Sequence record: KX011028.1
Strand: one strand, 5' to 3'
DNA from: Staphylococcus phage pSco-10
Length of the DNA stretch: 64,000 nt
Shown here: positions 2,654 to 61,068 of the stretch, in pieces
Layout of the letters: the number at the start of each line of letters is the position of its first letter
How positions within the stretch are numbered: position 1 is the first letter of the stretch
The notes under the pieces: model-generated
Databases searched by the model: none
What the model saw: only the letters and a program-made list of their open reading frames with translations
What the model was told of the DNA's origin: nothing
Made by a program: the position numbers and the translations under genes

Positions 2654-3092
2654 TTTTCTTCAACTGAATTACTTTTTCATTGCTGTCAGATTCAGTTTCT
2701 TCTTGTACTTCTTCTTGTTGTTTTTGACGTAATTCTTCTTGCTTCTCTTTTAAGTAAGCTTCTCGTTTATCATTTAACTTATTCTTAGCTTTTTCAACTT
2801 GTTCTTGAGTTACTCCTAACTCATCTTCCATGATAATCATCATTAAGTCAATTGCATTGAATGCATCATTAAAATCTCCTGAAATCTCTTGAACTGTAAT
2901 AGCATTAAGTACTTTAGCAATACGAGTTGCTTCTTCTAAAGAAACACTACGTGAGCCAATTCTATCCAACTGTTTAGCTGTTTTCTCATCAACTTGTTTA
3001 CCATCAACAGTTCCCTGTACTACAGCTTCAATCCATTTCTCCATGTCTGCTTGACTAATACCTTTTGTGTGTGTGCTAATATTTTTTTCCAT
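2640..3092 (-). CDS. hypothetical protein
   Basis: 150-aa ORF with codon usage coherent with its neighbours. Confidence 0.6.
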   Translation of the reverse strand: MEKNISTHTKGISQADMEKWIEAVVQGTVDGKQVDEKTAKQLDRIGSRSVSLEEATRIAKVLNAITVQEISGDFNDAFNAIDLMMIIMEDELGVTQEQVEKAKNKLNDKREAYLKEKQEELRQKQQEEVQEETESDSNEKVIQLKKNDEQ

Positions 3093-3430
3093 TATTCTTG
3101 TTCTCCTTTTTCTTCTTCATTTTTAGGTTCTTCTTGTGATTTATCAATTGATTCTTGAATGTAGTCTAATACATCTTCGTTAATAAGCTCTGCTTTATAC
3201 AAAGCATCAATTAAAATATTTAAGTTTAACTCATTGTTGTATTCTAAGTCTGTCATTTGCTCATTAACACCTATCATAAGGTTAGTAATAGCTTTAGCTA
3301 CATCTGTTAATGTTGCTGTTTCTTCTTTACCTATTTCTTCTAATTGATGTTGTCGTTGCTCATTACCAACTCTTAGAGCTGTAATGTATTCATCTACAAA
3401 TTTTAAAATATCTTTTTTATTATTTGACAT
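3092..3430 (-). CDS. hypothetical acidic protein
   Basis: 112-aa ORF. Start and stop overlap neighbouring genes (ATGA-type coupling). Confidence 0.6.
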   Translation of the reverse strand: MSNNKKDILKFVDEYITALRVGNEQRQHQLEEIGKEETATLTDVAKAITNLMIGVNEQMTDLEYNNELNLNILIDALYKAELINEDVLDYIQESIDKSQEEPKNEEEKGEQE

Positions 3431-3497
3431 TATTTTTTTTTCTCCTTTATTAATTACTTAAGTACTAGTATAACATAAAACTCTTCTAAGGTCAAGC

Positions 3498-4565
3498 CTA
3501 AAGTTTAAGTTTTTGTTGTATTTTGTAACTTTGTATACTTTCAGGTGTTACTAGTACTCGATTCTGTTTTAGTAACTCAAAAGCTTTCCTTGTTCCCATA
3601 TCATTTGCATCCTCGTCACCATGAGGTACAAAGTAAACTTTATTAAAGTGTGTTTTTAGCTTATAGGCTAAATCTATATTATTATCTAATGCATCAGTAT
3701 CTAACATAATATATATTGATGTGTCTACACTAACATAATCAATTATTTTTTTTATTTGATTTTCTGTTACTTGTTTACCTAGTGTTGCTACCCCATATTC
3801 ATGAAAAGTTAAAGCATCAAATACACCTTCAGTTATAACTAAGAATTTTTTCTTTCTTGCTATATTTAAATTAAATACGACATCTTTTCTTCCTACTTCA
3901 TCTTGTTTAGCAGGAGCATTAATAGATTTAATATAAGGGTTTTTCTCTATACTTCGTGTGTTCCAATACTGATAGTTTCCATCATTATCATACGTAAAGA
4001 ATATAATACTATTCCTTAATGATACTTTTGATTCCCCATCAACTTTATAGAAGCTCCCATTAATAACATAACCTATATTATTGTTAATGATTTGTTCTAA
4101 AGTTATACCTCTACCTTTTAAGTATTTTAGAAAAGGTATAATCTCTCTATTATTTAAATTATCTTTTAATAATTTATATCCATCAGGTAATCTAGGTGGT
4201 TTAATACTAGTATTTCCTTTATCTTGGTGTACTCCTCTAAGCATTAATATAAGTTTCTCTGATTCTGTTAAATCCTTGTTATTAGTTGTAAGTAAAGGGG
4301 CTCTCTCTATATCTATGTTCTTAGACTCTAATAAGTCAAAAGCTTGTTTACCTGTAATGTTGTAATAGGTCTTCATAAATGTAATCGGGTTACCGGATTC
4401 ATCACATTTTTTACAATGATATTGACCATTACTAGAGTCTAAAGCTTGCTTAACATAGAACTTATAACTTTTTTCTCCACAAAACGGACAACAGTATCTT
4501 AGCTCACCTATAGTATTCTCTTTTGGTTCTCCTAATTCTTGGGTTAAAAAGTCTTCAAACCTCAT
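3498..4565 (-). CDS. DNA primase (zinc-binding CHC2 domain plus TOPRIM)
   Basis: CCPFCGEKS...HCKKCDESG zinc finger. TOPRIM motif VITEGVFDALT. Confidence 0.85.
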   Translation of the reverse strand: MRFEDFLTQELGEPKENTIGELRYCCPFCGEKSYKFYVKQALDSSNGQYHCKKCDESGNPITFMKTYYNITGKQAFDLLESKNIDIERAPLLTTNNKDLTESEKLILMLRGVHQDKGNTSIKPPRLPDGYKLLKDNLNNREIIPFLKYLKGRGITLEQIINNNIGYVINGSFYKVDGESKVSLRNSIIFFTYDNDGNYQYWNTRSIEKNPYIKSINAPAKQDEVGRKDVVFNLNIARKKKFLVITEGVFDALTFHEYGVATLGKQVTENQIKKIIDYVSVDTSIYIMLDTDALDNNIDLAYKLKTHFNKVYFVPHGDEDANDMGTRKAFELLKQNRVLVTPESIQSYKIQQKLKL

Positions 4566-40217: not shown

Positions 40218-40355
40218 TTAATATTCCTTGTCAACACCTTTATGTTTATTTTTTCTAGAATATTTTGTTTTATCTTTCTTAACTTTGGTTACAGGGTTAA
40301 TATTCCATGTTGCCCTTGTATTACTCATTTTACCTATTGTTTTTCTATTTGTCAA
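40218..40355 (-). CDS. small very basic ORF (45 aa with TTG start, or 36 aa from ATG at 40326-40328), not in the track
   Basis: AAGGAGGG RBS 7 nt upstream of TTG. Sequence MTNRKTIGKMSNTRATWNINPVTKVKKDKTKYSRKNKHKGVDKEY. Confidence 0.35.
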   Translation of the reverse strand: MTNRKTIGKMSNTRATWNINPVTKVKKDKTKYSRKNKHKGVDKEY

Positions 40356-40408: not shown

Positions 40409-41422
40409 TTATAGATAAATAAATTTATACTTTTTACAATGCTTACTTTTACCTTTTAAAACTTTACTTATATTTGGTGCTGATGCATTAATTAATCTAG
40501 CTACTTCATTAACAGTACCTTCAACTGTTTCACCTGTAACCATATGTGTTCCTTTAATCATTTTCTTTTGGCTTCTTTTACGTGCTTCTTCAGGTGTATA
40601 TTTGTATTCTTCATCTACTAGTCTAAACATTTTGTTATTCAAAGTAAGTCTATCAATATTACCATATAAGTAAGAAGATACCCCTTTTATTCCGGTCTCA
40701 ATTTCACACTCTTTAATAGAGTTAAATATAGTTTCTTCATTTTTATCTAAATCATACATAGCTATTGATGTTGTTTTTCTTGGTCTGTTTTTGATACTCT
40801 CTTCTTTTTTGATTCTTCTTGTCTCTACATAAGTCTTTCTTTCTAATTCCTGCTCTTCATTTACTAAACTAAACTTGTATCCTGATGTGGAGTTTAGTTC
40901 CCCGATTAAACATTTGTAAAAATTACTATCTGTAAGTTTATACTTATTGATAATATCATTATAACTACCTGTATATAAATAACGACCATTCTTTGTGTAG
41001 ACATTAATATCACCATCAAATTTTAAAGAAGTAGTGTACACTTCTACTGTATCAGGTTTCTTAATCTCTGTAAAATAGTTTCTTAAAATTTGATATACTT
41101 GCTCTAAGGTTTTATTTTTATAACTTATATCTATATAAATTATATTATTGTTATCACAATATTCTTTTTTAATTCTATCAAGTAATTTTATTCTATCAAA
41201 ATCTAAATTGAATACTTGTCTATAATGTTGTTCACCCATATATTCAATACAATAAAATTTTCCTTGGTATTCTACTAAAAAATCCATTCTTTGTTTTGTA
41301 CCTATGTTGTTCCTAAAAGAATATTCTCGTTTATACTTCATATTATTAAAACCTAAAATTGAATCTACTAATCGTTCCCCATGAGAACCTAGTACTTTAT
41401 CTGAATATATCATTGATATCAC
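40409..41422 (-). CDS. free-standing homing endonuclease-like protein with an N-terminal Vsr/DUF559-like nuclease domain
   Basis: RMDFLVEYQGKFYCIEYMGEQHY is shared with ORFs 51768..52292 and 58823..59770. Confidence 0.7.
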   Translation of the reverse strand: MISMIYSDKVLGSHGERLVDSILGFNNMKYKREYSFRNNIGTKQRMDFLVEYQGKFYCIEYMGEQHYRQVFNLDFDRIKLLDRIKKEYCDNNNIIYIDISYKNKTLEQVYQILRNYFTEIKKPDTVEVYTTSLKFDGDINVYTKNGRYLYTGSYNDIINKYKLTDSNFYKCLIGELNSTSGYKFSLVNEEQELERKTYVETRRIKKEESIKNRPRKTTSIAMYDLDKNEETIFNSIKECEIETGIKGVSSYLYGNIDRLTLNNKMFRLVDEEYKYTPEEARKRSQKKMIKGTHMVTGETVEGTVNEVARLINASAPNISKVLKGKSKHCKKYKFIYL

Positions 41423-41474
41423 CTTCCTATTATTAATATATCATAAGTGTACCATAACTTTTACACTTTGTCAA

Positions 41475-41506
41475 TAAAAAAAAGACCTAACTTTTATTGT
41501 TAGGTC
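41475..41506 (-). terminator. rho-independent terminator after the tail tube gene's last exon
   Basis: Hairpin gaccuaac/guuagguc followed by an 8-9 nt U run on the minus strand. Confidence 0.7.
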
Positions 41507-41518
41507 TTAATAGGAAAT

Positions 41519-41545
41519 TTAAGTTCTAGCCTTATCTGATGCTGT
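41519..41545 (-). CDS. tail tube protein exon 3 (TASDKART plus stop)
   Basis: In-frame continuation after predicted intron 2, ending in TAA. Gives a 142-aa product overall. Confidence 0.6.
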   Translation of the reverse strand, partial: TASDKART

Positions 41546-41833
41546 CCTCTATACCCTATCTTTCGATATATTTTAAAGGGAGTAGACTATACCATAATCT
41601 TAATGTGTAACTAAGACTCACTTATTATAGTCGTTGAAGCTTCCCACTCTCGTAGGCTTGCCTGCGTATCATCTATTTTACTGTACTTAGGGTTTAACCT
41701 TATACTATACTAGATATTTTTTCTGATTTCTCAACATTCAAGCTTACCCTTTCAGGTTACTTTGTAGTTATCTAGTCTTTAAGACTTTCACGCAATTTAA
41801 AGTGTTTTCTATGCTTGTCACCAAACATAGCCT
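41546..41833 (-). ncRNA. ORF-less group I intron 2 in the tail tube gene (288 nt)
   Basis: Proposed P1 is exon CCUU, a 9-nt loop, IGS GAGG. Q-like aauccgcagg, R-like uucaacgacu and S-like agucu elements are present. Terminal G. The intron begins with UAA. Paralogous to intron 1. Confidence 0.65.
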
Positions 41834-41896
41834 CTATTAGTTAAAGGTAGCTAAACTCAATTTCTTCTGTTACAATTTCATTTGTCTGCCACGTCT
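41834..41896 (-). CDS. tail tube protein exon 2 (NYNETWQTNEIVTEEIEFSYL)
   Basis: 63-nt in-frame segment between two intron-like repeats. Exon 1 ends in U and the intron ends in G. Confidence 0.6.
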
Positions 41897-42239
41897 CGTT
41901 GTAGTTCACTTATACCCTATCTCTCGATATATTTAAAGGGGTTAGACTGTCCCATGTCCCTTATTTCTAAGGTGACTACCTATTACAGTCGTTGAAGCTT
42001 CCCACTCTCGTAGGCTTGCCTGCGGATTTCCTATTGATTGAGTACTTAGGACATTAATAATGTGTCGTTAGTTATTAATGCTTTTATCTCACCATATACT
42101 ATCCAATTAATTTTTTCTGATTTCTCAACATTCACGCTTACTCTTTCAAGTTACGTTGTAGTTTAATTGGCTTTAAGGTGTTCCCGCAATTTCAGGTATT
42201 ATTCGACTATACATTACTGTATAGAAGCAACAATTATTT
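41897..42239 (-). ncRNA. ORF-less group I intron 1 in the tail tube gene (343 nt)
   Basis: Proposed P1 is exon CAAU, an 8-nt loop, IGS GUUG. P2 hairpin cuauaca/uguauag. P4 ugcggg/ccgca. P7 gacu/aguc. Terminal G. Confidence 0.65.
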
Positions 42240-42578
42240 ATTGGCACTACATCCGTGGTAACTAATAATAACTTGTTTTGTTAAGTTATCTACTACTAAA
42301 ATATCAATGATATCTTTCTTAAGAATTTCTTCACCAAGTGAAGCATATCCTAAATCTGCAAAGTTTTCTTTTTTCATACGTAAACGTTCTACTGTAATTG
42401 TACCCTCATAACGTAAGTATACGTGTTCTTGAGGCATGATAGAACCGATTTCGTATACACCAGTTGTACCATATTCACGAGTACCTGATGCTGATTGTGC
42501 TCTTCCTACCGGTTTACCTTTAATCATAAGTAGGACGGTATTACCAGTATGGACGGTTTGTTTAGCTTCTGATGCCAT
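42240..42578 (-). CDS. tail tube protein exon 1 (113 codons)
   Basis: The track ORF 42234..42578 ends 2 codons into the intron (AAA TAA). RBS TTAGGAGAG. Confidence 0.85.
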
Positions 42579-42650: not shown

Positions 42651-44414
42651 TTAGGCTTGTAATGTTTGTTGCTTGTAAACCAAGCTAACAGAGATTTTCT
42701 TGAAGCTTCTGATTGGGTAAACTGTCATTGAAATTCTTGCTTCGTTACCTTCAACAATAACTTGTACGTCTTCAGCAGGGAAGTCTTGAATTTCATTATC
42801 ACGTTTCTTACGACCCAAGTAAGATTGGATAAAGTCTTTAATGATTGAAGCACTTGTATTGATAGTACGAGTACCAATGAATTGGTCTTCAAGTTGAACT
42901 TTAAGCTCACTTACTAAGAAGTCATTAGCTTCCCCAACAGCCATCTCAGCCTTAACTGGGTCTGACTTATCGTTGAATGTAGTTACGTCATCAACGATTC
43001 TGAAGAATGTATTAGTACGGTTACGAACAAACTCGATACTAATAATACCATTTTCATTTAATTCATCTAAATCAATTGACTCGTATACTTGGTCTAATGA
43101 ACTTACAAGTAATGGTTTGAAAGTGATTGATTCACCAATCTCTAAACCACTTGCAAGACCACCTAACGCTACAGCTACCATATAAGCAGGTACATGGTTT
43201 TTACGTCCATCATCCATAACAAAAGTACCTGAGTTAGCTACTAATGATACACGTGGATTAGATAATGATGCTTGTCTACCGAACAATTGTTCTTTAGATT
43301 CATTAAATCCTCCACCAACAATAGCTCTCATTGGTTCTCCTGCATCAGAACGTTCTTTAACGAAAGCAGATACCTCTGCATGAACTGATTGTTTAGATGA
43401 TAATGGAACAATGTAGTATCCACCTTCATGTGCAAATTTCTCTAATTTATCTGCCCATGTAGCAGGTGGTTCACCGTTAGTACCGCCTTGTAACTTAGTT
43501 AATTCGAAAGGCTCGATAGTTCTAATAGGTGAAGTAGCTGTTACTGTAGCTGATTCTTCTCCTGCTTCAACTTCTACATTGCTTGGTACTTCTCCTTCTG
43601 CATTAAGTTGCTCAAAAGATACAATACCATTAAAAGCTGTTTGTTTTTCTAAGTCACCGAAGACTGCTTTAACGTATACAGCTTTATCTTTAATGTCTAC
43701 ATCTGATGCTTTATCTAATTTACTAGATTCTAAGTTTTTATCTCCGAAAGGTGATAACTTAGCTTCAAAATCAGGTAATTGATTGATGTCTGTGATAATA
43801 GCATTAGTATAATCATAAGCACCGCTAGTTAAATCATATGACTTAACTTCTTGGTCTCCAACTTTTAATACTAAACGACTTGCTTTTTGAGTTTCTTCAT
43901 CATGTTCTACAGAGAAAGTTGCGTTAGCTTCTTCACCTGTATATTTAATTGTGAAGATATTACCGATATTATCGTAAACTTCATTGAAACGGTCATCTTG
44001 GAAAATTACTCTTAAACGTAATGAATCACTTAATGTGTTCTTTTCCAATCCTACTTGAATGTTATTAGCAACATTACCGTAGATTTGAGATGTAATTTTT
44101 AGTCCGCCAACTTCTGCTGTTGCAGGTTTAGCATCTTCAGTACGCATAGCTAAAATCTTACCTGCTGTATAGTTAGGGTTAGAACCCCATGCTAATTCAA
44201 TTGCATCAAGTAATTCTCCTGAACGGAATAAACGTTTAGCTTGTGCGTAGTTACGTAATTGATAAACTGTATTTGGTTCTCCGCCTTCTGCTGAACCGAT
44301 TAAGCAAAGTACTTTTTCACTTGAACCTGCTGAGCCACCGATACCTGAAGTATCTACTTCAATAGATGTATGAGGACGGGTAATAGGTCTTCTTGGGAAT
44401 GGTTCTACTGCCAT
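42651..44414 (-). CDS. tail sheath protein
   Basis: 587 aa. Sequence and size match the Kayvirus tail sheath. Confidence 0.9.
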   Translation of the reverse strand: MAVEPFPRRPITRPHTSIEVDTSGIGGSAGSSEKVLCLIGSAEGGEPNTVYQLRNYAQAKRLFRSGELLDAIELAWGSNPNYTAGKILAMRTEDAKPATAEVGGLKITSQIYGNVANNIQVGLEKNTLSDSLRLRVIFQDDRFNEVYDNIGNIFTIKYTGEEANATFSVEHDEETQKASRLVLKVGDQEVKSYDLTSGAYDYTNAIITDINQLPDFEAKLSPFGDKNLESSKLDKASDVDIKDKAVYVKAVFGDLEKQTAFNGIVSFEQLNAEGEVPSNVEVEAGEESATVTATSPIRTIEPFELTKLQGGTNGEPPATWADKLEKFAHEGGYYIVPLSSKQSVHAEVSAFVKERSDAGEPMRAIVGGGFNESKEQLFGRQASLSNPRVSLVANSGTFVMDDGRKNHVPAYMVAVALGGLASGLEIGESITFKPLLVSSLDQVYESIDLDELNENGIISIEFVRNRTNTFFRIVDDVTTFNDKSDPVKAEMAVGEANDFLVSELKVQLEDQFIGTRTINTSASIIKDFIQSYLGRKKRDNEIQDFPAEDVQVIVEGNEARISMTVYPIRSFKKISVSLVYKQQTLQA

Positions 44415-57153: not shown

Positions 57154-57975
57154 CTAAATAAAATCACTATAATCACCTAAGAATTGTTTTACATCTTTTT
57201 TTCTTAGGATGTATCCATCTTTATTAGGTTTAAATCCTAAAGTTTTTAAATACTCTATAGCTTCAGGCAATTCTATGTCATACACAACTGCATTTTTATT
57301 TTCCTTAATACTTAAACGTAATAATTCCATAATAGCTCTTGCTCCTACGCCGTCTGAATCAGGTGAGCTTGCATAAGAGTCTAAAATTATATCATTTTCA
57401 GTTCTTTTAAAAGATGTAATTCCTAATGTATCTCCATTATCATCAACAAACTCTTTGTACAATGATGAGTTTGTACTGACATGTGATACATCGACACCTT
57501 TTTTACTTAAACTAGATAATGAATTTGCTACCTTTTTAGGGTTTACCTTTCCTTCTTCACCATTCGAAATAGCTCTTGCTCCTACTGCACTTCTACTAAC
57601 TTCTTCTTTTCCTTCTTGTTTTTCTTTACTATCATTATCTTTATTACCGTCTTCGTAAACTGTCATTTCCATTTCTTTACCATTACGAATAACAGTACGT
57701 TTAACCTTATTTAGCCCACTAAGATTTTTATCTCCACCTTTATGGACTATTTCAGGCTCTCTATTAGCATATAAAAAACAATCAAAGAAATTATCGAATC
57801 CTAGAGATTTATAAACATGTTCATATTTAACATCTAAGGCATCACTATTTTTAGAAACATAATCTAAAGATAATTCCTCACCCAATAACAAATTCAATAC
57901 ACTTTTATTAATTTCTTCATTACTAATTGTACCATAAAATAATTTATTTGTCAAGTTTATTTCACCTCTATTCAT
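57154..57975 (-). CDS. hypothetical protein (start trimmed to Met21 so it no longer overlaps terL exon 2)
   Basis: The track ORF 57154..58035 overlaps terL by 68 nt. Contains a repeated GARAI motif. Confidence 0.5.
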   Translation of the reverse strand: MNRGEINLTNKLFYGTISNEEINKSVLNLLLGEELSLDYVSKNSDALDVKYEHVYKSLGFDNFFDCFLYANREPEIVHKGGDKNLSGLNKVKRTVIRNGKEMEMTVYEDGNKDNDSKEKQEGKEEVSRSAVGARAISNGEEGKVNPKKVANSLSSLSKKGVDVSHVSTNSSLYKEFVDDNGDTLGITSFKRTENDIILDSYASSPDSDGVGARAIMELLRLSIKENKNAVVYDIELPEAIEYLKTLGFKPNKDGYILRKKDVKQFLGDYSDFI

Positions 57976-58738
57976 CAAAGTAGAATTGTTTATTTCCTTC
58001 TTGATTGTAATCAGTGGAAACAAATGTAGAACCAAAACTTGTACCGTTTCCTTCTTTAAGAAGTTCTTGTATTCTTGTTAATCCGATATTAGAGTATACA
58101 GATGCTTGAGCCCAGTGGTCGTCACCTTTACGTTTAATAACTTGTCTCATTTCTTCTGTTTTCTCATCTTCTTCATCCATGATTAATACATTCTGCCAAT
58201 GTTTTAAGAAAGTTCTTAAATCGTCATCCACTTCTTGGTACATTCTTATATTCTTAGTTTTTAAACCTTGGATATATAATTTGTTCTGCATTAATTTATC
58301 TACTGTAACCGTATTTTTATTTTCATTAAATTCAGGTCTTAACTGTCCTGTGGATTTAGGAGAAGATTTATAAGTACATCCAAAAACTTTGTCTTCCCCA
58401 AAATGATTAATGAGTTTTAGAACGTTATTACCTGAGTCACCGTTATCTGCAATTATAATGTCAGGGTCGTACTTAGATATTTCCCAAATGATTTTTTCTA
58501 AATCTGCTTCTACCATATCAGGTCTAGACATTTTCTTAACAGAAAATAATCTAATTAAATCTTTTTTACCATCAGGTAAAACTCCATGAATAGAAATCCA
58601 ATGAGTATTACCCCAATCTATACCTACAGAAATATGAGAATATCTATCTCGTTTCATTAATTGTGTTTCTGCAATAGGTGATTTATTGCCAAATACATCT
58701 TCTTCTAAAACACGCATTTTAACATCTTCAAAAGGCAT
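57968..58738 (-). CDS. terL: terminase large subunit exon 2 (nuclease domain). The 5' boundary is tentative.
   Basis: ISVGIDWGNTHW is an RNaseH-like motif I of the terminase nuclease domain. Exon 2 is proposed to begin at ATG 58736-58738. Confidence 0.6.
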   Translation of the reverse strand: MPFEDVKMRVLEEDVFGNKSPIAETQLMKRDRYSHISVGIDWGNTHWISIHGVLPDGKKDLIRLFSVKKMSRPDMVEADLEKIIWEISKYDPDIIIADNGDSGNNVLKLINHFGEDKVFGCTYKSSPKSTGQLRPEFNENKNTVTVDKLMQNKLYIQGLKTKNIRMYQEVDDDLRTFLKHWQNVLIMDEEDEKTEEMRQVIKRKGDDHWAQASVYSNIGLTRIQELLKEGNGTSFGSTFVSTDYNQEGNKQFYFDE

Positions 58739-60021
58739 CAATTACTACCGCTAGTTTCCTAGTATTTGTTTTACGGTTTAGACTATATCATAACCCTTAG
58801 TTTAGGTTAAGGGCTCTCTGCTTTACACTAATAATTTTTTATCTAAATATCTTGCTATAGTATTATAATATTTTTCAGTATACTTAATTTCAATTAACTT
58901 ATATCCTTTTTCGTTTGCATACTTTCGTTTAATATTATCTTTTATAACTTGCTGTTCATATGCTTCTTTACCACCAAAACTATCTATTGGCATGTAGTGC
59001 TGAGCTCCATTATATTCTATTAAGATGTTTAACTCAGGTAAATAAAAGTCGTAGGATAAGTTTCTTTTGTATACTAAATCAGAAAACTTCTTCTGAGTTT
59101 CAAACTTGATATCTCTACTATTAAGATATTTTTCTACATGTTTTTCTCCAATAGACATTTTACATGTAGGACACATATCTCTTGTTAGTAAATGATTAGG
59201 TTTGATTTCCCATTCTGTTCCACATTTATGTCTTACTAGTATTTTGTTTTTTGAGTTAATATAGGTTCCTAGTACTTTGTAGTCACTACCATATCTATCC
59301 TTAACCTCCTTAACAAATACTTCGTGAGGCTTTCTTTGGCTAAGGTTATGAGACTTAATACGACAATACCAACATCTAGAATGTGAAGATATGAAAGCGT
59401 TAGGTGTAACCTCCCACTCCTTGTTACATTCTGTGTGTCGTAGTGTTACTTTATTATAAACACCATTGTATTCTCCTACTAAGATGTACTCCTCTCCTAC
59501 TATGTTGTATAACTCTTTCTTAAACTGTTCAGTAGTTTTAGTTTTTTTACCTTTTGTTTTGTTATTACATTCCGGACATCTTGTTCCTTCTAATACACTT
59601 TTAGGTCGAACCCAATACTTATGATGGTTACAATTCTCTGAGTTGTGTTGTATTAAAACTTTAGTATGGTTATTTGTATACTCACTTAACAAATTATATT
59701 CATCTTTTACCTTAGAGAATAATTTATTTTTAAATTCTTCTGTTGTCATCCTTCGTGCCAAATTAAGCACCTCCTTATTATTAATATTATTTTTTTAAAA
59801 AATTATTAGTTTTTATCTAGTTCTCACTTACACCTTTTTGTAAGTTACCTAGAAATTTAGTCGTTAGGCATTTAGTTAACCTTACAAATACACTATAACA
59901 TGTATTTTATATAAAGTCAACACTTAGCACGGGATTATCATATGCTTCTTTAAGCACTTAGATTTTCCCCGTTTAACAGAGTTCTTCGATACACATTACT
60001 GTGTAAAGGGGCTACCTATTT
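58739..60021 (-). mobile_element. group I intron in terL (about 1.28 kb) carrying a homing endonuclease ORF
   Basis: 5' splice site after GGT (plus 60022-60024). Proposed P1 is exon GGGU, a 9-nt loop, IGS GCCC. R-like cuaacgacuaaa precedes the ORF. S-like gauauagucu and a GAAA-tetraloop P9 (cuag gaaa cuag) follow it. The 3' splice site is uncertain. Confidence 0.6.
58823..59770 (-). CDS. intron-encoded homing endonuclease with zinc-finger DNA-binding modules and a C-terminal Vsr/DUF559-like nuclease domain
   Basis: Several C..C/H..C knuckles. C-terminal DFYLPELNILIEYNGAQHY. AAGGAGG RBS with an ambiguous TTG/GTG start. Confidence 0.75.
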   Translation of the reverse strand: MLNLARRMTTEEFKNKLFSKVKDEYNLLSEYTNNHTKVLIQHNSENCNHHKYWVRPKSVLEGTRCPECNNKTKGKKTKTTEQFKKELYNIVGEEYILVGEYNGVYNKVTLRHTECNKEWEVTPNAFISSHSRCWYCRIKSHNLSQRKPHEVFVKEVKDRYGSDYKVLGTYINSKNKILVRHKCGTEWEIKPNHLLTRDMCPTCKMSIGEKHVEKYLNSRDIKFETQKKFSDLVYKRNLSYDFYLPELNILIEYNGAQHYMPIDSFGGKEAYEQQVIKDNIKRKYANEKGYKLIEIKYTEKYYNTIARYLDKKLLV

Positions 60022-61068
60022 ACCCAGTGAATAATTATAAAAGGCTTGTTTTGATTCTGTGTTCATTTCTTTTTCAACAAGTTGGTCTGCAGAAATCCAT
60101 ACAGCGTTCATTTGAGATATATAGTAACCTCTAATACCTGAGTTATTTTTGGTTCTATCAGGGTAACGACATTCCCATACCCCATTATACCATCTATCTA
60201 AAGGTTTACCACATTTTTGACATACATATTGATAAGTACCATCTTGAACTGTTTTTGCTGTTTCATCTATACCATCAGGATTAACTAATAATAAATTACC
60301 ACTTTCCATCAAATTATTTTCATCATATGGTGCATATTTCATCTCATTATGATAATCACAATGTTGACAAACATGTGCATAATACCATTGGTCAGATTGT
60401 TGGTAAAGTTTATGAATACCAATTCCAGGTGCTGAAGGTGTTGAGAACCTACGTACTATTTGGAATGTAGAACTTGACATGGACTCTAGTGCAGAAGACT
60501 CAGCAAGGCTATTTACCCTCTCATATTCATCCATTGCAAGAAAATCTATATCTACACCTTCTACTGTTCCTGGTTTACTACTTGTTCTAAAGAATAAACT
60601 AGAGTTTCTTATCTGTTTATACCCTAAAGAATCTTTATCCCAATTAACTATATCAGTAAAATATCTCTTCTCTAATACAGGATTTAACCTAGATTGAACA
60701 AATTTTTTCATCTGCTCGTTGGTCGGGAAGGTGTAAAGACATTTAGGTGATTTATAACTATACATATCTGCAAAATGAACCATTTCCATTACACTCATCT
60801 CACTCAAACCAAGCTGTCTGCTTTTTATTACTGCTTTATTTGGATGAGTGTCATTTACTATACGGACTTGCCACGGTCTATGAGCCTGTGCTTTACTTCT
60901 ATCCCTCTTAGGAATACTGAAAGTTATAGGGTGACCCCTTAACGTGTGATACTTAAGCATATAGGTAGAAGGGTTTAACATATTGATTATATGGTCTACC
61001 TGTTCTCTTGTTATTTTTTCTGTTTGAAATGTTTCTTGTGCTATCTTAATTAGTTCTTTTCCATCCAT
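60022..61068 (-). CDS. terL: terminase large subunit exon 1 (ATPase domain)
   Basis: 349 codons of terminase ATPase up to ...NYSLG. The track ORF continues only AAA TAG into the intron. Confidence 0.8.

Follow-up and report, generated by a model that had tools for sequence, protein, structure and literature searches.

The tail-tube gene of the Kayvirus Staphylococcus phage pSco-10 (sequence record KX011028.1, of which a stretch of 64,000 nucleotides was analysed and is hereafter called the window) is interrupted by two group I introns that carry no open reading frame (ORF) and belong to one ribozyme family, here named alpha. Most likely, the two were acquired separately, at the DNA level, from a common pool of mobile introns, and the pair did not arise by duplication within the lineage. 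We regard as probable the wider explanation in which paralogous alpha introns became retargeted to nearby sites of the gene, were acquired separately, and travelled as parts of a cassette driven by an endonuclease gene. The two introns would then show, at one moment, an unusually dense system in which retargeted ribozymes are linked to the cassette of a homing endonuclease.

The gene (42578..41519) lies on the minus strand, like all the elements of the locus described below, and is preceded by the tail sheath gene (44414..42651 in the ORF list). The ORF list shows it as a reading frame (42578..42234) that covers residues 1-113 of the tube protein and then meets a stop codon. We placed the splice sites by requiring that the 5' exon ends in U, that the intron ends in G, and that the product is collinear with that of intronless relatives. 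Exon 1 (42240..42578; codons 1-113, ending in ...GCCAAU), for which the ORF list, the splice reconstruction and collinearity with the intronless phage G1 agree, is followed by intron 1 (41907..42239; 333 nt), which is inserted in phase 0 after nucleotide 339 of the coding sequence (CDS). Exon 2 (41844..41906; 63 nt, codons 114-134, NYNETWQTNEIVTEEIEFSYL, ending in ...CCUU) separates it from intron 2 (41546..41843; 298 nt), inserted in phase 0 after CDS nucleotide 402, and exon 3 (41519..41545) adds codons 135-142, TASDKART, and the stop codon. We name insertion sites by the CDS nucleotide that they follow, i.e. 339 and 402 for this pair. Splicing restores the reading frame and gives an ORF of 142 amino acids; both introns end in G (omega-G) and both 5' exons in U. 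In intronless Kayviruses, e.g. G1 and SA5, residues 1-142 are matched as one unbroken tblastn piece at 99.3% identity. An earlier note on this DNA, made from the letters alone, had rightly assigned the span 41546..42239 to the two introns, which fill it exactly together with the exon between them, and had rightly spaced them 63 nt apart. Its lengths of 343 and 288 nt were each off by 10 nt because the internal exon had been set 10 nt too far downstream, and those internal boundaries would create an in-frame stop codon within exon 2.

Aligned with each other, the two introns are 78-80% identical over aligned columns, or 68% when identity is counted over the longer length. The resemblance is closest in P5b (26/30 positions), P5c (18/18), P6/P6a (25/25), and P9 with the 3' end (30/35), and lowest in P1 with the guide (8/24), P2 (6/19), and P8 (10/24); P5a also differs in sequence. 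The differences in P2 and P8 arise largely by compensatory substitutions. Intron 1 has in addition an insertion of about 35 nt in its P5d arm (42052..42086, in the alignment A2 of the two window introns with five relatives from other sites and phages), which is found in its relatives at sites 339 and 366 and is absent from intron 2 and from the introns at site 328. A block of 38 nt covering P4'-P6-P6a-J6/7-P7, CGCAGGCAAGCCTACGAGAGTGGGAAGCTTCAACGACT, is identical in intron 1 (41987..42024) and intron 2 (41629..41666); it gives two matches in the real sequence and none in 100 shuffles. The long colinear blocks from which the earlier note had argued for paralogy are therefore real, and since the similarity reaches the peripheral elements and is not limited to the universal core, the alignment identifies the window introns as true paralogs that are homologous well beyond that core.

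Part of this resemblance is secondary. In P5b-P5c, intron 1 matches the 328-site intron at 11 of 12 informative sites and not its same-site relative in phage vB_SscM-1, against 7 of 61 sites elsewhere (Fisher p=1e-7). Intron 2 is entirely of the intron-1 type in P6 (12:0) and entirely of the 328 type in P8-P7' (0:15; Fisher p=6e-8). This mosaicism indicates that internal modules have been swapped among introns of different sites, the ends that determine the site staying in place, and that the long identical blocks derive in part from such exchange. It also gives weight to an explanation in which the blocks are mainly the result of concerted evolution, gene conversion having homogenised introns that were originally more different, either in tandem or during co-infection; similarity would then overstate how recently the two shared an ancestor. 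We consider this unlikely as the main cause, though it deserves to be taken seriously, because the segments that were not converted are also collinear and share the same helix architecture and many unpaired positions. Common ancestry of the whole family is still needed to account for these segments, and concerted evolution modifies rather than replaces the explanation by retargeted paralogs. The similarity of tandem introns can be inflated by gene conversion, which bears on any inference of "recent duplication".

A number of observations favour separate acquisition. First, each intron occurs without the other. Phage vB_Sau_CG has a 339 intron alone, 99.7% identical to that of the window, and T-SE-G1 has a 402 intron alone, 98.3% identical; in RODI, Remus, and SA11 the 402 intron is joined by a 328-site intron instead. 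The 1.3-kb intron region, which is 99.2% identical to that of Staphylococcus phage SA3, is matched by about 400 phage records, and at 95% identity or more 56 records of the phage collection contain the 402 type and 20 the 339 type. Second, same-site introns have been transferred horizontally between genera. The 402 intron shows no difference from the copy in the Silviavirus Remus (100% identity to Remus/Romulus), while the sheath genes of the window phage and Remus are 78.2% identical, nucleotides 1-300 of their tube genes 85.7%, and the intron-adjacent exon sequence, nucleotides 301-429, 93.8%. Third, the window paralogs differ by about 22% and by 20 compensatory changes, whereas same-site copies differ by 0-2% across genera, which places the split of the paralogs before the current spread. 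Fourth, intron 2 groups by distance with the 328-site intron and intron 1 with the 366-site intron.

The exons bear the marks of the same events. Compared with intronless G1, 17 of the last 36 codons of the window tube gene differ, all of them synonymously, and they include four multi-nucleotide switches of codon family (Ser TCT>AGT, Leu TTA>CTT, Ser AGT>TCA, and Arg CGT>AGA). The recoded exon parts (CDS codons 107-141; 41519-41660 and 42240-42260, minus strand) are made of two co-conversion tracts. The first, codons 107-118, also occurs in the 339 carriers CG and SA3, and the second, codons 129-141, in the 402 carriers T-SE-G1, RODI, and Remus. The tube gene of T-SE-G1 is G1-like up to nucleotide 386 and switched from nucleotide 387 on. 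Some of the recoding creates the target of the intron guide, namely GCC-AAU for the guide GUUG, and CCUU in place of CUUA for the guide GAGG. Two separate tracts, each made of an intron and its flank, are what two DNA-level acquisitions would leave. Exon 3 of the window also has GCAU|CAG, the exon allele that elsewhere accompanies introns at site 409, a site at which the window has no intron.

The earlier note had interpreted the pair as a local duplication, i.e. one intron of this lineage was copied at the DNA level or reverse-spliced into a site 63 nt away and its guide then drifted. The two introns are indeed of one family, near-identical in P5b/c, P6, and P9, and merely 63 nt apart; related introns with partly matching targets exist elsewhere, so that retargeting has occurred somewhere in the family. 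What stands of that claim is a homologous family that moved between nearby sites (328, 339, 366, and 402) and whose guides differ. An origin within this genome is improbable in the face of the 22% divergence with its 20 compensatory changes, the 98-100% identity to same-site copies in other phages and genera, the occurrence of each intron without the other, nearest neighbours that lie at other sites, and two distinct exon tracts. The recognition sequences give it little help, the guides GUUG and GAGG having in common their first G only, and the targets, CAAU against CCUU, agreeing at their two outer letters alone, C and U. That the two introns are unrelated, acquired independently and alike through the universal group I core alone, is hardly credible: apart from the differing sequences of P2, P5a, and P8 nothing speaks for it, and against it stand the 78% identity of the pair, where introns of a second family, beta, in the same gene reach 61-69% over aligned columns and 38-57% when the longer length is the basis, the 87-100% identity of P5b, P5c, P6a, and P9, and the exact 38-nt repeat.

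Both introns have sequence features of group I ribozymes. In an Rfam scan limited to the region, RF00028 matched the area of intron 2 (41853..41564) with 50.7 bits (E=1.4e-11) and that of intron 1 (42258..41923) with 31.0 bits (E=1.1e-05), the curated gathering threshold of this model being 50 bits. Scans of the whole 64-kb window reported no intron, at the gathering threshold or at E<=0.01; a 1.4-kb scan detects what they missed at both thresholds. Filter losses are severe in AT-rich phage DNA and, as these introns were found by region-limited scans alone, missing Rfam matches elsewhere in the window are not evidence of absence. The guide of intron 1, 5'-GUUG-3' (42228..42231), pairs with the end of exon 1, CAAU, in 4 bp with U.G at the splice site; that of intron 2, 5'-GAGG-3' (41831..41834), pairs with the end of exon 2, CCUU, in 4 bp with a terminal U.G. 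The earlier note had read both guides correctly.

The architecture that we tested on the seven family members of the alignment comprises P2, P3, P4, P5, P5a-d, P6, P6a, P7, P8, and P9 with the P3/P7 pseudoknot, in all 74 pairs in 15 helices. The modelled positions can pair in 97.7% of cells; sliding the 3' partners by 1-3 columns lowers this to 34-41%. Compensatory change is seen at 31 of the 74 pairs. When just the two window introns are compared, 50 pairs stay as they are, 20 carry compensatory double changes, 1 has a change on one side, and 3 no longer pair. Folds of the single sequences recover P2, P4-P6, P7-P8, and P9, with minimum free energy z-scores of -2.4 for intron 1 and -2.9 for intron 2, so that covariation and individual folds both uphold the group I structure that the earlier note had assumed. 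RNAalifold paired the 5' strand of P3 with the 3' terminal AGGGUAU; it misplaced P3 because it cannot draw the P3/P7 pseudoknot, and we rejected this pairing, put in the canonical P3, and tested that. The pattern of substitutions argues that both introns are ribozymes held under selection for their fold, and they are predicted to self-splice. Each would find its own 5' exon by the 4-nt guide, and exact excision would restore the 142-residue tube protein. As the earlier note had observed, neither intron encodes a homing endonuclease: the ORF list has no ORF of at least 30 amino acids inside either of them on the coding strand.

A putative homing endonuclease, which the earlier note did not mention, is instead encoded by a free-standing gene (40409..41413; 334 amino acids from ATG, or 337 from a GTG at 41422) that begins some 100 nt past the stop codon of the tube gene, behind a terminator-like hairpin with a T run (41482..41508) and a sigma-70-like promoter, TTGACA-17-TACACT with TG (41446..41474). 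The product matches phrog_7140, "intron encoded nuclease" (6.8e-100), and PF22083 (1.4e-09), and combines an N-terminal nuclease-like core with a C-terminal DNA-binding domain like the NUMOD of I-HmuI. Its homologues share a core of about 110 amino acids with the invariant motif S.GE...N...DF...E..G.QH...D..K..Y and are otherwise 26-50% identical to one another. We mapped tail-tube introns in 16 GenBank loci and further IMG/VR loci (about 35 loci, as compared with about 350 Twortvirinae genomes). Of the 15 intron-bearing staphylococcal-phage loci from GenBank, the window included, 14 have a homologue of the nuclease directly behind the tube gene, as do phiEF7H and most of the intron-bearing IMG/VR loci. 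All 24 loci with the endonuclease have introns; those without it are divided into 5 with and 7 without (Fisher p≈1e-4 in a test that ignores relatedness). Intronless G1 has no such gene. Homology between the window and G1 stops at 42265 and restarts at 40349, about 1.9 kb here replacing about 220 nt there, and this stretch with its introns, recoded exon, terminator, and endonuclease gene behaves as an optional cassette, which fits a collaborative homing arrangement.

The architecture of the locus, by analogy with known systems, suggests collaborative homing. The free-standing endonuclease would cut the intronless tube genes of co-infecting phages, the introns would shield the carrier's own tube gene from it, and repair would then copy the cassette across, i.e. 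the introns, the flanking exon, and the endonuclease gene. Cutting and shielding have indirect support in the presence of introns at all 24 endonuclease-positive loci and in the synonymous recoding of the exon near the insertion sites. This gene is the probable driver of intron acquisition, each acquisition carrying an intron and a short recoded tract of flanking exon. The alpha introns have been retargeted to at least four nearby sites (328, 339, 366, and 402) in the gene pool of staphylococcal Herelleviridae, the beta family occupying at least seven further ones, and the paralogs then diverged under selection for the ribozyme fold and traded internal modules by gene conversion.

Several points weigh against this explanation as a whole. 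Concerning the endonuclease, a PDB sequence search and NCBIfam gave no match, and its homologues give only weak, sub-threshold matches to Pfam DUF2726, on the strength of which it is possibly PD-(D/E)XK/Vsr-like. Introns without the endonuclease gene are found in Remus, SA11, and some metagenomic loci, and endonuclease subtypes do not correspond one-to-one with intron sites; we sought such a match and found only a tendency of the 3'-most intron to go with the endonuclease subtype. The sample comprises some 35 loci, as against some 350 Twortvirinae genomes, and the test of association takes no account of phylogeny. The mosaicism reported above also impairs the distance tree on which the nearest neighbours of the introns are based. 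Finally, phages with one intron could derive from ancestors with two by recombination with intronless alleles, for which reason the order of events is not strictly recoverable.

The window pair occupies two of a much larger set of sites. In staphylococcal Twortvirinae we found 11 insertion sites (328, 339, 345, 355, 366, 374, 386, 391, 397, 402, and 409), all within 82 nt (CDS nucleotides 328-409) of a 429-nt gene; tube genes that have introns contain one to four of them, and many Kayviruses, e.g. G1, have none. Families were searched with nhmmer profiles rather than with a covariance model, and in other phages we set the junctions by hand, guided by the U/G rule and the reading frame. Spliced alignment in which introns were penalised only lightly was discarded, as it invented micro-exons inside introns and, with unrestricted targets, put short terminal exons kilobases away. 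The alpha family is found at sites 328, 339, 366, and 402. The beta family, of the Twort-ribozyme type and including the three introns of Twort orf142, is found at 345, 355, 374, 386, 391, and 409, and the intron at site 397 of L033 matched the beta profile too. A third type, at a position homologous to 391, is carried by phage PG-2021_23 and by Enterococcus phage phiEF7H. In every case checked except two odd ones the guide fits the local exon.

Some of these loci merit description in their own right. The tube gene of CIFT_MFB_MRSA13 (2846-4026) has four group I introns, at 345, 374, 391, and 409, separated by exons of 29, 17, and 18 nt. In phiEF7H, which belongs to the Brockvirinae, the tube-gene intron (2392-2779; RF00028, 34.3 bits) is homologous in position to the staphylococcal site 391 and, together with a downstream ORF that has the same nuclease core motif, extends the hotspot beyond staphylococcal phages. 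The 387-nt intron of PG-2021_23 (2891-3277) has a single in-frame junction, at which the exon ends in G (GAG|), and the record is marked UNVERIFIED; its phiEF7H relative at the homologous position has a normal CAGU| exon end. At site 355 of PM32 (2856-3161), the canonical choice of exon-end U, 7-bp P1, and intron-end G gives a frameshift; keeping the frame and Trp119 requires an intron that ends in A, with a start of the 3' exon for which a 5-bp P10 speaks. This may be a non-canonical 3' splice site, or a problem of annotation or sequence.

Three sister pairs bear on how introns of one family may have reached different sites. The introns at 339 (target CAAU, guide GUUG) and 366 (GAAU, GUUC) are one base apart in guide and in target; they come from two closely related Sciuriunaviruses and have 91% identity over aligned columns. 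Comparing vB_SscM-1 (339; 2840-3173) with ZCSS1 (366; 2867-3199), we see P1-P2, P8, and the 3' end replaced, which looks like a recent retargeting or an end-swap. A second pair joins 328 (GGUU, GACC) with 402 (CCUU, GAGG). The third consists of Twort 386 and the 409 clade, with identical target and guide (GCAU, GUGC). A choice of site directed by the guide, as in reverse splicing, would fit two of the three pairs; the alternative is illegitimate repair triggered by the endonuclease, followed by selection for splicing at the new site. We know of no reverse transcriptase in this system, and no search for one was made.

These observations raise the possibility, which we put forward tentatively, that the last 100 nt of the Herelleviridae tail-tube gene are an intron "landing strip", comprising the 11 staphylococcal sites and the homologous Enterococcus site, used by at least three ORF-less families that would be retargeted by 4-nt guides, exchange modules, and take part in an arms race. 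Each insertion might shield the gene from one of the diverging adjacent endonucleases, and we are similarly guarded about the suggestion that such an arms race drives the pattern. If it were so, near-isogenic pairs such as SscM-1/ZCSS1 would be the most tractable natural system in which to tell RNA-guided reverse splicing from endonuclease-triggered illegitimate repair. For the long-standing question of how group I introns spread to new sites, several pairs at this locus show natural before and after states, in lytic phages that are easy to manipulate.

Tail-tube genes with several introns are already established, in Twort orf142 and in phage 812. As summarised in later papers, Twort orf142, which is the tail-tube gene, carries three introns, I2 and I3 being much alike, and exon skipping occurs there (Landthaler & Shub 1999, via PMC10136302 and PMC11878797). 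The likeness to the window is considerable: the genes are orthologous, the spliced product is also of 142 amino acids, the 3' quarter of the gene contains a cluster of ORF-less group I introns, two similar paralogs are split by a short exon, and a nuclease gene follows immediately downstream. The sites are different (345, 386, and 409 in Twort, 339 and 402 in the window), and so are the ribozymes, the window introns being 45-55% identical to Twort I1-I3 over the longer length. They have 3 nt between P7 and P3' and a large P5a-d extension, whereas Twort-type introns have extra hairpins (P7.1/P7.2) in the former place. These hairpins define subgroup IA2. By hairpins and by similarity, the window introns fall outside the Twort type. 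The Twort introns I2 and I3 share guide and target (GUGC/GCAU), which is behind the exon skipping reported there; the two guides of the window differ. By its sites and, as judged from sequence comparison, by its ribozyme family, the window pair is distinct from both precedents.

In mutants of phage 812, the loss of the tube introns reportedly went along with that of the adjacent nuclease gene (Botka et al. 2019, PMC6445280, citing Lobocka et al. 2012). The genus, the gene, and the layout of two ORF-less introns followed by a nuclease gene are those of the window, as is the joint gain or loss. The 812 type is represented in our sample by PM32, whose annotated nuclease gene (467 amino acids, 1404 nt) matches 812 orf104 in size; going by gene sizes, phage 812 probably shares the PM32 arrangement. 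PM32 has beta introns at 355 and 391 and a nuclease 35% identical to that of the window. The model for collaborative homing is cyanophage S-PM2, with an ORF-less psbA intron and the free-standing F-CphI, as reviewed in PMC6083498 and PMC3984707 (Zeng, Bonocora & Shub 2009). There, too, the intron is passed on together with the endonuclease gene and the flanking exon; the staphylococcal system is unlike it in having up to four introns per gene, 11 alternative sites, and another nuclease family, and in that cleavage and protection are here presumed from the arrangement of the genes. Related group I introns at different positions of ribosomal DNA have been taken as circumstantial evidence of reverse splicing, according to the account in PMC3984707 (Bhattacharya et al. 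2005). The tube gene resembles that case in having closely related introns at different nearby sites of one gene, with guides that fit each site and some sister pairs whose targets are identical or have one mismatch. It differs in being a protein-coding phage gene with an adjacent endonuclease, which offers a DNA-level route. The intron distribution in Twortvirinae was called "well documented" in a 2025 paper (PMC11878797). For the full set of sites, the intron-linked recoding of exons, and the module exchange we found no description in the literature searched, which did not cover the key reviews (Lobocka 2012; Lavigne & Vandersteegen 2013), and we claim no priority.

In the annotated public records with tube introns that we fetched, the tail-tube CDS ends at the first intron. 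The records of Remus and PM32 have "promoter" features annotated inside introns. The paper on vB_Sau_CG reports no tail-tube introns (PMC5526547), contrary to the genome, which carries the site-339 intron. Such truncated CDS annotations and missed introns make correct splice coordinates matter for these phage-therapy candidates.

Outside the tube gene, partial matches to alpha P3-P5 were found in introns at the portal region of Brochothrix phage A9, the lysin of phiSA_BS2, and rec of MSA6, and also in phages of Lactococcus, Enterococcus, and Clostridium, so that this ribozyme family extends beyond the tube gene. Within the window, there are weak beta-profile matches at 1-121 and 750-901 on the minus strand (E=3.8e-07 and 2.4e-03), where a regional Rfam scan gave nothing; lying at the very start of the window, they may be part of an intron cut by its edge. 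A further group I-like element lies at about 58738-60031 on the minus strand, with an RF00028 match of 33 bits at 60031..59823 and nhmmer beta matches at both ends. It encloses an ORF of 315 amino acids (59770..58823), stands between the ORFs 61068..60016 and 58741..57968, and is probably an endonuclease-containing intron in another gene.

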